NCBI GenBank assembly: GCA_964016885.1
Contig: OZ024755.1
Span: 13,020,001-13,084,000, forward strand
Origin: Eledone cirrhosa
Lineage: Eukaryota
DNA length: 64,000 nt
Direction: 5' to 3'
Below the pieces are notes generated by a model. It worked only from the letters and a program-made list of their open reading frames with translations, did not search any database and was not told where the DNA came from. Positions 51,401-60,400 of this stretch are shown piece after piece (positions within the stretch are counted from its first letter, which is position 1; every line of letters begins with the position of its first letter). A program made the position numbers and the translations under genes.

Positions 51401-54400
51401 AGTTCTATTGAGCCGATGTCAGCAGAGATGACATATAAGTAATTATGATGATGATGATATGTGTATTTCTCTGTGTCATTTAGATCCGTCCTTCAATGAT
51501 TCAACAACTGAGATGCCGCTATGAACTGGAAATGACCAGAAAATCCAGGGTATATTTCTATCTTTATTTTTTCCTTTCTTTCTCGCTTTCTCTATTTGTT
51601 TTGTTATTTTTTATATTATAACATATCTTACATAATTGTTTCTGCTTTTGGCACCAGGCCAGCAATTACCCAGTACATTACTGGTACTTTATTATAACGA
51701 CCCCCGTAAGGATGAAAGGCAAAGTTAACCTCGGCGGGATTTGAACCCTGTCTGTAAAGGGACGTAACTCGGTGCTGGAAAGCATGGAGTCCGACCCTCT
51801 ACCGATACTGCCAATGCATCGTCCTACATATCTTACATAATGTGGAGTTATTTTAAATAAACTGAGCTGAGATAATACCACCATGTGAGTGAATGATTGA
51901 GGAAGTGACAAAAATAGGAGGACAGAATGGTATAGAGTATGAGCGTCATAGGAAATATGTGTATGGTTGTATTTCTATGTCTGTGTGTGTGTGTGTGTGT
52001 GTGTTTGTTTCTCAGAACTTTGATAAATATAAAGAGATCGATAAAATAAGTTCTAAACTTGAAAAAATAAATGCTGGGGTTAATATGATTAACTAAATCC
52101 CTTGAAGACAGTACTCCAGCATGGCCACAGTCTAATGACTTAAACCTGTAGAGAAAAAAAAACAGTATATATATATATATATATATATATAGGAAAAGAT
52201 CTGAACAGTTTGGATCTAGCTGTCGAAAAAGCCGGAGCTCAGCTGAAGGGGTCTTGACTCTTTTCTCTATTACCCACTCTACTACCCTAAGTATTGAGTA
52301 CTCTGGTGCGTTATGGTCCACCTGGTATCTTACCACACCCTCTTTGTTATATATATATATATATATTCTCTCCCTTTTTTTTTCTCTACAGGTTTAAGTC
52401 ATTAGACTTTATATATATATATATAAATAAAGTCTATATTATGTGTATATATATATATATATATATATATATATATATATATATATATATATATATATAT
52501 ATATATAGTAGTAGTAGTAGTAGATGACCTAAATTTAGAATCAGAAAGGGAAACGACTCTATTCTCTGACAATATAAGTAACACCAAATATAAAATACAC
52601 TGTGAATTAGAGTGTTTGATACAGTGGGTGTTGTTGGCTTTCACCATCTTGTCTGCTGGGTGCAGCTGAAATATACAGTGTATCTATTTTAATCTAAATG
52701 CACTTATACCTCTTATGGTACAGTGTACCTATTCTAGATCAGATACAAACATACCTCTTGTGATACAGTGTACCTATTCTAAACCTGATACACAGATACA
52801 TACCTCTTATGATACACAGTGGTACAGTGTACCTATTCTAAACCAGATACACACATATCTCTTACAATACACAGAGATACAGTGTACCTATTCTAAACCT
52901 GATACACAGATACATACCTCTTATGATACACAGTGGTAGTGTACCTATTCTAAACCAGATACACACATATCTCTTACAATACACAGAGATACAGTATATC
53001 TATTCAAAATAAGATACAAACATAAATAAAATATGATGTGTTGAAATACTAATGAAGTTTTTTTCTGTTGCCTTGTAACATGTTTTAATACAGTAAATAT
53101 TTTATTGCAGAGATTAAAAATTCCTGGTAAGAAAGATCAAACCAAAAAAACTCCAAATTTTCCTGAAGTATGTATTAAAAAGAATTTATGTTCACTTATA
53201 TATATTTGTATGTATGTGCAGTGTTGTATGGTATGGTATGTGTGTATTTGAGTAAATGTAGTGTTTGTGGTATGATGTGTCTGTATGTATATACACTACA
53301 CCTGATATTCCCTCTCCAAACACACGTATTCATGTGTGTGTATATCATGACTTGTACACTGTTCACTTTTCTGACATTTGTACATTATTCTATGTACTAT
53401 ACATGCACCTTTGATGAGTTTTAATGCACCTGAGCACTGTATATATATTTATTAAAATAACAGATTAAAGTTTAAGCAAAGAATCGCTGCTTTGACCCTT
53501 AACGGGATCTTCTGAAACTCAGAAGATCCCGTTAAGGGTGAAAGCAGCGATTCTTTGCTTAAACTTTAATCTGTTATTTTAATACTATTACTATATATAT
53601 ATATATATATATATGTATATATATATATATATATATATATATGTATATATATATATATATATATATATGTATATATATATATATATATATATATATGTAT
53701 ATATATATATATATATATATATGTATGTATATATATATATATATATATATATATGTATATATATATATATATATATATATATGTATATATATATATATAT
53801 ATATATGTATATATATATATATATATAAAAACAAATAACGAAACGAAATTAAATTTCGTTTCGTTTGTAACTCACTTTTGTATGACTGACGCTTAAACAA
53901 TTAAGTTAAAGATGTACATCCATATATGTATACTGAAATACTAGTATGTATATGAATACACACACGTTTACATATGTAGATGTACCAAGTTTTTTCACTG
54001 GTCACTTTACTGTGAGTGGCCAGCTATTCTGTATGTAAACACACAGACAAACCGGTTTTTAGAGTCATACTGGTTTTTGAGGAAACACCTTTCCTCTATT
54101 CTCCAGAAAGCCAGACAAGGAACATTGAACCAGTTTCGTTGTTGTTACAACTCATCAGCAATATTTACCTATCTTCCGGCCTTTCTAGAGAATCGTAAAA
54201 GCACATATCGTTATATGCTTTTTCTATGAAAATTAGTAGTGGGCAGACTAATTTGCATAGAGTGTGAGTAAGTACCGGTTCAACGGAGACGATAAAAACA
54301 AATAACGAAACGAAATTAAATTTCGTTTCGTTTGTAACTCACTTTTGTATGACTGACGCTTAAACAATTAAGTTAAAGATGTACATCCATATATGTATAC

Positions 54401-57400: not shown

Positions 57401-60400
57401 ATACAGAATAGCTGGCCACTCACAGTAAAGTGACCAGTGAAAAAACTTGGTACATCTACATATGTAAACGTGTGTGTATTCATATACATACTAGTATTTC
57501 AGTATACATATATGGATGTACATCTTTAACTTAATTGTTTAAGCGTCAGTCATACAAAAGTGAGTTACAAACGAAACGAAATTTAATTTCGTTTCGTTAT
57601 TTGTTTTTATCGTCTCCGTTGAACCGGTACTTACTCACACTCTATGCAAATTAGTCTGCCCACTACTAATTTTCATAGAAAAAGCATATAACGATATGTG
57701 CTTTTACGATTCTCTAGAAAGGCCGGAAGATAGGTAAATATTGCTGATGAGTTGTAACAACAACGAAACTGGTTCAATGTTCCTTGTCTGGCTTTCTGGA
57801 GAATAGAGGAAAGGTGTTTCCTCAAAAACCAGTATGACTCTAAAAACCGGTTTGTCTGTGTGTTTACATACAGAATAGCTGGCCACTCACAGTAAAGTGA
57901 CCAGTGAAAAAACTTGGTACATCTACATATGTAAACGTGTGTGTATTCATATACATACTAGTATTTCAGTATACATATATGGATGTACATCTTTAACTTA
58001 ATTGTTATATATATATATATATATGTATATATATATATATATGTATATATATATATATATATGTATATATATATATATATGTATATATATATATATATAT
58101 GTATATATATATATATATATATATATGTATATATATATATATATGTATATATATATATATATATATATATATATATATATGTATATATATATATATATAT
58201 ATATATATGTATATATATATATATATGTATATATATATATATATATATATATATGTATATATATATATATATGTATATATATATGTATATATATATATAT
58301 ATATATATGTATATATATATATATATGTATATATATATATATATGTATATATATATATATATGTATATATATATATATATGTATATATATATATATATGT
58401 ATATATATATATGTATATATATATATATATGTATATATATATATATATGTATATATATATATGTATATATGTATATATATATATGTATATATGTATATAT
58501 ATATATGTATATATGTATATATATATATATATATATGTATATATATATATATATATATATATATATGTATATATATATATATATGTATATATATATATAT
58601 ATGTATATATATATATATATGTATATATATATGTATATATGTATATATGTATATATATATGTATATATATATATATATATGTATATATATATATATATAT
58701 ATGTATATATATATATATATATATGTATATATATATATATGTATATATATGTGTGTGTGTGTGTGTGTGTGCAATGGTGTGTGTATATATATACATATAT
58801 ATGTGTGTGTGTGCGTGCAATGGTGTGTGTATATATATATATATATATGTGTGTGTGTGTGCAATGGTGTGTATATATGTCTCCGTATGCTGATGTGTGG
58901 TATGGTGAATATATATATTCATTTATATGTGTATACAATACATCAACAACAAGCCTTTTAAGACCATCTTCTCCTCTAAAACAGGGGATAACCTCATAAG
59001 CCTCATGATATGGGGTCCTTTTTTAGGCAAAGTTTTTCTAAACTAGATACACATAGACTTAATAGACGTTCAACAATTATATATAAGAATGTATAGTGTA
59101 CCTATTTAAACCAGATATACACAGACTAGATGAAGGTTCAACTATCAAATATTAGAATTTATTAAAGGAAAATTTTGTGGACAACTTAAAAGTTCTTGTT
59201 TTATTGTTTATTTGTATTCATTAACAGCCATCGGACCAAATAGACAATGTAATCCACATTCAAGGGTCAAATTTAATAGCATCCTCAAGAATCCAACTGT
59301 TTGATACACTAACTGTAGCAGACATTATATTCCATGCACAGAAACAGTATCTTGCTGAGAATGAAAGGTAAGACAGTTGAGATATTTATTTTCTGATTCT
59401 CTCTTGTTCTTTCTATCTCATGTACAATAAAAACCTAGTTACAATAATCTATACTGAAGAAATATAAGTATGTTGAAACAAACATTTGTCTATGGATACA
59501 GAAGTTGAAGAAAGTTAGTTATATTACTAAATCTTTTCAAAGTTTTTACTAAGTCTAATCATCATCATCATCATTTTACGTCCGCTTTTCCCTGCTTGCA
59601 AGGGTGGGATGGGTCTTATTCAGCACAGCATCTCTCCACTCGTCACGGTCCCTCGTCATCTCCACTGTGAGCTTCAATGATCTGAGGTCTGTTCTCACCA
59701 CCTCCGCCCATGTTTTTCGTGGTCTACCTCTACCACGTCTTCCTTCAACTGGCACTTCTTCACTCAGCAGTCATCCTCCATGCGCATCACATGTCCATAC
59801 CACCTCAGTCTCCTCTCCCGTACACTACATTCTATCCCTCTCAGACACAGTTTCTCTCTCAACACATTTATGCTGGGTCGTTCACGCACATTTACACTGC
59901 ACATCCAACGGAGCATGCTTGCCTCATTTCTCTGCAGTTGCTGCCCATGTCTCACTACCATGCAGCATCGCGCTCCTCACACAGGCATCATACAACTGGC
60001 ATTTCGTACGCAGGGAGAAACCCTTCTTCGTCAACAGAGGAAATATTGTTTGAAAATCATATGCAGCGTTTTTCTTTCTAAATGTGATAATGAAAGATTT
60101 AAACCTTGTTTCTTTCTTCTCAGTATATACTAAGATTAGCAGAAAAGTTCATAGGCTGACCAGATGAGGTTTATTTTTCAACATAATCCTTGAAAAGAAA
60201 CAATCCAGTTATTAATAAGAGTTTAAATTAATGTATGCAAGATTTCACAGCACTAGCATCATTCCTTCACAGTCAAACTATGAATGTTTCAGCCAACCCT
60301 TGTACAGTTCTAATGGCAGCGATATATATATGTTCTTCCTTCCTTGCAGTGAGTCTTACCAAAGGAAGCAAAGCCAGCCAACCTATAGTCATCATCATCA

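Follow-up and report, generated by a model that had tools for sequence, protein, structure and literature searches.

A two-arm hammerhead retrozyme array in an octopod intron, a candidate product of copying by a Penelope-like enzyme

Introduction

Retrozymes without long terminal repeats (non-LTR retrozymes) have been described in many animals, a mussel among them, with Penelope-like elements (PLEs) named as strong candidates for mobilizing them (PMC7229834). In the available text of the closest accounts (PMC7229834; Li 2026, bioRxiv 10.64898/2026.07.22.740005) they are non-coding, AT-rich, self-paired tandem units of a few hundred bases (quoted as 150–450 bp) with one type I hammerhead ribozyme each, present in thousands of dispersed copies and with PLEs as the proposed mobilizer. 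Li 2026 argues for an origin from PLE pseudo-LTRs, with no mollusc sampled in the text available. Two questions about animal retrozymes, which enzyme copies them and whether their template is circular, have so far been discussed chiefly on the strength of co-occurrence and of similar sequences. Here we describe a retrozyme family of Eledone cirrhosa through an array in a window of 64,000 nucleotides (assembly GCA_964016885.1, contig OZ024755.1, positions 13,020,001 to 13,084,000, forward strand), for which a reading of the letters alone (the original prediction) had proposed a mollusc retrozyme; the host is indeed a mollusc, an octopod.

The family shares with the described non-LTR retrozymes all of the unit properties listed above, and differs from them in its head-to-head inserts with one fixed long and one fixed short end inside (TA)n, and in a unit of 467 bp, slightly above the quoted range. 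In contrast to the pseudo-LTR origin of Li 2026, the candidate partner found here, the PLE family N1, has no sequence likeness to the unit. Endonuclease-bearing PLEs leave an inverted 5′-truncated copy, often a tail at one end only, and have microsatellite targets (Craig 2021, PMC8557442), and a purified PLE cuts and extends both DNA strands and starts at two sites within the RNA, by which the tail is defined (Frangieh 2024, PMC11167929). All of this recurs in our reading of the octopod insertions, but these have no open reading frame (ORF), their arms are runs of identical units instead of a pseudo-LTR plus ORF, their tail is about 70 nt instead of 30–40, and they pair strictly long plus short, whereas the in vitro system showed no strand difference in the portions available (PMC11167929). 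A third comparison is with type I hammerheads of animal repeats and PLEs that have a short helix III (1–2 bp) and a palindromic loop, for which dimeric folding is predicted to be necessary (PMC4209133). The octopod motif has these features and the same prediction, and differs in a longer stem I with an extension and in its cleavage site, which is GUU in most young copies and GUC or GUA in relatives; the window copy is a wobble-only near-palindrome.

Retrozymes and a suspected role of PLEs are thus already known, and a two-arm, fixed-end footprint was not found published for retrozymes. Our literature search returned nothing on octopus retrozymes, nor on two-arm, fixed-end or edited retrozyme inserts, with the limit that supplements and subscription papers may hold such families; the word "inverted" is absent from the available text of PMC7229834. 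At thousands of sites the present family shows a mechanistic footprint, and next to it the genome has a candidate enzyme that is intact and apparently active, which makes both the enzyme and the template directly testable.

Layout of the array

The array spans positions 53825 to 58006 and consists of nine 467-base hammerhead units with zero differences between copies. Its coordinates, period, nine cores and uniformity are those of the original prediction, and so are its units; the simple tandem arrangement is not, as three of the units lie on the minus strand and six on the plus strand. The left arm (53825–55217, minus strand) comprises 2.98 units with three hammerhead cores (starts 55092, 54625 and 54158), and the right arm (55217–58006, plus strand) 5.97 units with six (starts 55409, 55876, 56343, 56810, 57277 and 57744). 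The arms meet head to head at 55217 with one base in common and give a perfect inverted repeat of 1,393 bases. Because of this layout, a transcript can carry at most six sense ribozymes on the plus strand or three on the minus strand.

Unit positions are counted from the predicted cut site, with +1 at 55440. In this numbering the left arm starts at the junction at position 312 and ends outward at position 303 (the long end), and the right arm starts at 245 and ends outward at 232 (the short end). The tail region between both fixed end points of the family (unit positions 229–303; 55668–55742, plus strand) would contain the start sites of reverse transcription. Outside the arms lie two target tracts of (TA)n type without assigned strand, at 53592–53824 on the left and 58007–58750 on the right. 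The unit is AT-rich (GC about 35%), and its only frame of at least 70 amino acids is an antisense frame of 94 amino acids without a Pfam match; an ORF with reverse transcriptase (RT) and GIY-YIG domains was looked for in the array and in the window, and none was found.

The array is probably a single insertion of a non-LTR retrozyme, for which a PLE would have copied a likely circular 467-nt RNA from both ends of a cut (TA)n tract. The interpretation keeps what had first been proposed, a young type I hammerhead retrozyme insertion of RNA origin with likely dimeric folding. Under the proposed mechanism, tandem transcripts of the retrozyme would self-cleave as dimers and form 467-nt circles. A PLE complex would then bind, likely near unit positions 230–303, and cut a (TA)n tract on both strands; priming would take place at position 303 from one DNA end and near 230 from the other, and each complementary DNA would run round the template until both were joined head to head at an arbitrary point. 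Adenosine-to-inosine (A-to-I) edits of the RNA template would be carried into the new array, and the arms may grow later at the DNA level.

Ends and targets across the genome

Pattern searches of the genome uncovered a dispersed family: no fewer than 7,689 units match one exact core pattern, and at least 2,281 long ends are followed by TA. A count by a short-end pattern was set aside, since overlapping matches inflate it. We examined 33 loci chosen by identity, the window included, and all of the 100 long-end matches listed, which lie within the initial 124 Mb of contig C1. Among the 124 insertions that were uncut by a fetch edge or by N (the duplicates L096 and L097 are both counted), 91 carry a long end (303) on one strand and a short end (229–235) on the other, 33 have one or no end that could be classified, and none has two like ends, either long plus long or short plus short. 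For samples chosen on the long end, the informative contrast is that of 69 long-short with 0 long-long insertions. The second arm is inverted and 5′-truncated in the window and at most loci, the median arm measures 580–613 bases, and (TA)n flanks are common to the retrozyme unit and to the PLE families N1 and N2.

Three features link the element to PLE enzymes, namely its inverted layout in two arms, its pair of fixed ends and its (TA)n target, all of which the original prediction had missed; the copying enzyme was very probably of PLE type. The strict long-plus-short rule in turn constrains the mechanism of PLE integration.

Some further hammerhead repeats were seen alongside the family. The window itself contains an insertion of a sister retrozyme family (approximately 24230–25210), about 67% like the unit and also in two-arm layout, with its own hammerhead on the minus strand (the core lies at 24862, and the site is GUA) and an AT-rich hairpin expanded to about six tandem copies of 80–84 bases; across the genome, this sister family has no fewer than 8,256 cores. 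L055 (5811–5865) contains a third tandem hammerhead family, which is more divergent and whose stem III palindrome is CGCG, and in L060 (3545–4640) a retrozyme arm is fused without a gap to a tandem repeat of some 400 bases that is unrelated to it. Near-identical unit sequence occurs, at very different depths, in the sequencing runs X1, X2, X5 and X6, which are labelled as four different organisms, none of them on record as RNA. Contigs of X2 and X6 loop back by 467, a picture that a circle and tandem DNA would give alike.

Hammerhead motif and fold of the unit

All nine units carry a complete hammerhead with a stem I of 7 bp plus an extension, a stem II of 5 bp, a stem III of 2 bp and a GUU site, in agreement with the original description, which had called stem III vestigial; in the first plus-strand copy the motif lies at 55397–55449, with predicted cleavage between 55439 and 55440. 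The proposed Rfam check gave a divided answer: there was no match in the window at the gathering score, and a match to Hammerhead_HH9 of 32.9 bits (E 3.2e-6) lies under the cut-off of 52. We aligned 17 hammerhead variants, hand-picked from this family, the sister family and one further family. In this alignment, both partners are altered in 11 of 17 pairs, and pairing holds in 95.8% of cells. As the rows are related and were picked with a pattern that contains the core, the covariation backs the stems and not the core, whose invariance in alignment A1 is by construction.

The single 467-nt monomer between predicted cut sites (55440–55906, plus strand) is highly self-paired, which bears out the earlier impression of a hairpin-rich unit: it folds far better than shuffled sequences (z −10.7 as a linear and −9.3 as a circular molecule; opposite strand −7.0). 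The catalytic core is not formed in the lowest-energy predicted fold of the monomer. Stem III is the palindrome ACUAGU in the family and ACUGGU in the window, where a locus-private G in the stem III loop (55436, plus strand) is present in all nine units; this variant is still self-complementary, via wobble pairs. It is quite likely that tandem transcripts self-cleave as dimers and then circularize.

Template and age of the arrays

The predicted cut site is crossed by 135 of 157 arms, twice or more by 57, and the inner ends are spread round the unit, with 7 of 162 near the cut site where 3.8 are expected. Because the arms run across the cut site, with no clustering of inner ends at it, the template was either a circle or an uncleaved multimer. 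The A-to-G variant of the window is found in nine units of the whole assembly, all of them in this array and in both of its arms; its donor could be absent from the single haploid assembly. Older arms are no longer than younger ones (rho 0.02, n = 39), and the share with three or more units is 20 of 106 in the young and 1 of 52 in the old subfamily. In the long arrays L191 (C10:47.40 Mb), L054, L194 and L206 we observed a higher-order periodicity of 2, 3, 4 or 6 units. Overall, we consider that the RNA template was probably circular.

Mutation spectrum

Changes were analyzed in 77 of 100 loci, in which the arms resemble the window unit at 92% or more; the older subfamily was excluded and 35 alignment-unstable positions were masked. 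The changes were placed by parsimony on a midpoint-rooted tree; their polarity can be wrong. On the ribozyme strand, array-wide changes comprise 54 A-to-G against 22 T-to-C (of 137; p 2e-4), or 21 against 8 (of 61) on terminal branches, whereas single-unit changes comprise 32 against 27 (of 274). The excess of A-to-G over T-to-C is found at paired sites (43 vs. 15), with 11 vs. 7 at unpaired sites. Within pairs, A-to-G in A-U (41 changes at 87 sites) exceeds C-to-T in C-G (8 at 49 sites; p 0.004). Pairing tends to be kept in changes other than A-to-G as well (25/54 vs. 33/154).

This spectrum speaks for a stage as structured RNA of the ribozyme strand. Selection for G-U wobble pairs alone is disfavored as an explanation of the A-to-G excess, because C-to-T is not raised equally. 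The octopus lineage is known for heavy RNA editing, and we lean towards ADAR (A-to-I) editing that was written back into DNA; if so, the family offers a way for RNA edits to become inherited DNA.

Penelope-like elements and a candidate partner

The genome contains many elements with RT and GIY-YIG domains, and 10,597 GIY-YIG candidates were counted. In family N1 (L255–L268; L147 3630–9040), a 455-amino-acid ORF1 overlaps a 784-amino-acid ORF2 with RT and GIY-YIG domains, of which there are intact frames, and the tail measures about 38 bases. N1 is young: all 150 scored matches are at least 98% identical over 200 amino acids, and eight intact frames differ by 0–17 of 2,352 bases. With the CX4CxxC linker of the Neptune/Nematis type in its predicted protein, it appears to be a Neptune-type PLE; the family is apparently active. 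In 14 stretches fetched, all seven readable inverted pairs of N1 follow the long-plus-short rule, as do nine inverted pairs of N2 read by eye. On its sense strand N1 lacks a CUGANGA core, and the family shows no similarity to the retrozyme unit (best E 0.11).

At L083, inside (TA)n and with no TA between them, a long-ended retrozyme arm is fused to a 5′-truncated, short-ended copy of N1. A second fusion of a retrozyme arm with N1, at L205, is long plus long. Fusions at 2 of 130 fetched family loci suggest, and do not prove, N1 as the partner; that this hammerhead-less Neptune-type family mobilizes the retrozyme in trans is a plausible proposal that we hold tentatively, just short of favoring it. 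L060 and L098 were also considered as possible chimeras and were rejected, as neither proved to be a PLE fusion on inspection.

In a more far-reaching version, the hammerhead circle would parasitize an unrelated, hammerhead-less Neptune-type PLE in trans, whose two active sites would start at two fixed, different points of one circle and roll in opposite genomic directions, so that ADAR edits end up in every unit of a new germline array. As a whole this is rather doubtful; if true, octopus retrozyme lineages would evolve largely via inherited RNA editing.

Other PLE-related structures were also noted. Another PLE family (L132, L136, L137, L140, L145 and L149) has, about 350–420 bases past its ORF, a small core like that of a hammerhead, with the palindrome AGUACU as stem III. 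Short ORF-less fold-backs built solely from PLE 3′ ends, with one long and one short end each, are present at L041, L189, L225, L066, L254, L078 and L093.

Opposing evidence and alternative explanations

Several observations weigh against a circle copied by a trans-acting PLE. Concerning the partner, N1 fusions occur at no more than the 2 of 130 loci, one of them long plus long, and either could be a deletion between neighboring inserts; L064 adjoins a fragment of a different PLE family, is ambiguous as a chimera, and lacks a clear shared end. Concerning the ribozyme, the predicted dimer helix is weaker with the window variant (−5.0 vs. −6.6 kcal/mol), and dimer constructs were cleaved in only one of nine cases in the available text of Li 2026 (bioRxiv 10.64898/2026.07.22.740005). 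The preferential conservation of core nucleotides by which the original prediction was to be judged is not significant in the young family, where 1 of 137 changes falls in the core and 3.5 would be expected (p 0.13). Concerning editing, the neighbor preference of ADAR is not significant (5′ G 2/32, p 0.16; 3′ G 8/32, p 0.20), and a triple A-to-G change at L080, considered as a second private haplotype, was rejected as an inherited lineage (69 units at 7 places). Concerning the copying itself, the available text on the purified PLE describes start sites with no strand difference and names uncleaved RNA as the chief substrate in vitro (Frangieh 2024, PMC11167929). Finally, older long arrays (L054, L194, L192/L193, L206 and L233) show periodic variants in one arm only, which shows that expansion at the DNA level after insertion occurs; it could lengthen short arms.

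The alternative that survives best combines the same twin-priming by a PLE with a linear, uncleaved multimer as template; arms would be born with one or two units and lengthen by unequal exchange or slippage, and ribozyme and circles would be incidental. The arm-specific periodic variants of long arrays fit this account, as do the median arm of merely 580–613 bases and the occurrence of PLE insertion in vitro without ribozyme cleavage (PMC11167929, text available). Both starts lie within one unit, so one edited linear RNA could also give both arms the same variant. We nevertheless regard it as unlikely, since both arms are long and wholly uniform in the window (3+6 units), at L043 (8+8) and at L080 (7+13), arm length does not rise with age and arms of the old subfamily are shorter, and the hammerhead stems covary across families.

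Alternatively, the unit might be the pseudo-LTR of an unseen hammerhead-bearing PLE, with the inserts being truncated stumps moved in cis. Xenopus retrozymes are related to pseudo-LTRs according to the available text of Li 2026 (bioRxiv 10.64898/2026.07.22.740005), and the 3′ region of another PLE family of this genome has the hammerhead-like core mentioned above. However, arms continue into the unit itself and not into an ORF, and no ORF-linked copy was found among related ribozyme cores at the loci viewed. At the 50 GIY-YIG loci viewed, of 10,597 candidates, no PLE terminus resembling the unit was found, and unit-like matches were separate retrozyme inserts or TA-rich noise. The limited share of loci viewed speaks for the pseudo-LTR account, which we still judge very improbable.

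A DNA-level satellite, a fold-back rearrangement or an assembly artefact with a chance hammerhead-like motif is scarcely credible: perfect identity and long inverted repeats are prone to mis-assembly, and the copy number here comes from the assembly alone, but at least 2,281 precise long ends, the fixed end pairing, strand-asymmetric changes and covarying stems speak against it, and identical end points are seen as loose ends in contigs of an independent run.

Host gene and other features of the window

The insertion that we attribute to a PLE-copied retrozyme lies in an intron (approximately 53129–59230, plus strand) of an ARHGAP18-like RhoGAP gene, the exons of which extend over 36248–61214 (plus strand). 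On the plus strand, the array is flanked by exons at 51484–51546 and 59231–59344, and a further short exon, near 53111, is weak. An exon near the array matches ARHGAP18-like proteins of Octopus bimaculoides and Argonauta hians at 92% identity. The insert thereby places a perfect hairpin of 1.4 kb and six predicted sense ribozymes in the intron of the host.

Directly left of the target (TA)n lies a near-perfect fold-back of about 140 bases (approximately 53447–53590), one arm of which is slightly longer; it is possibly a minimal two-arm insert of another family. A lone hammerhead-like motif of another family, with a long stem II and AUAUGUAU in the stem III region, is located at 12208–12280 (plus strand), and motifs resembling it are also present in L138, L144 and L152. 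The start of the window (1–2245) is occupied by a G/T-rich tandem array of about 83 copies of a 27-base unit.

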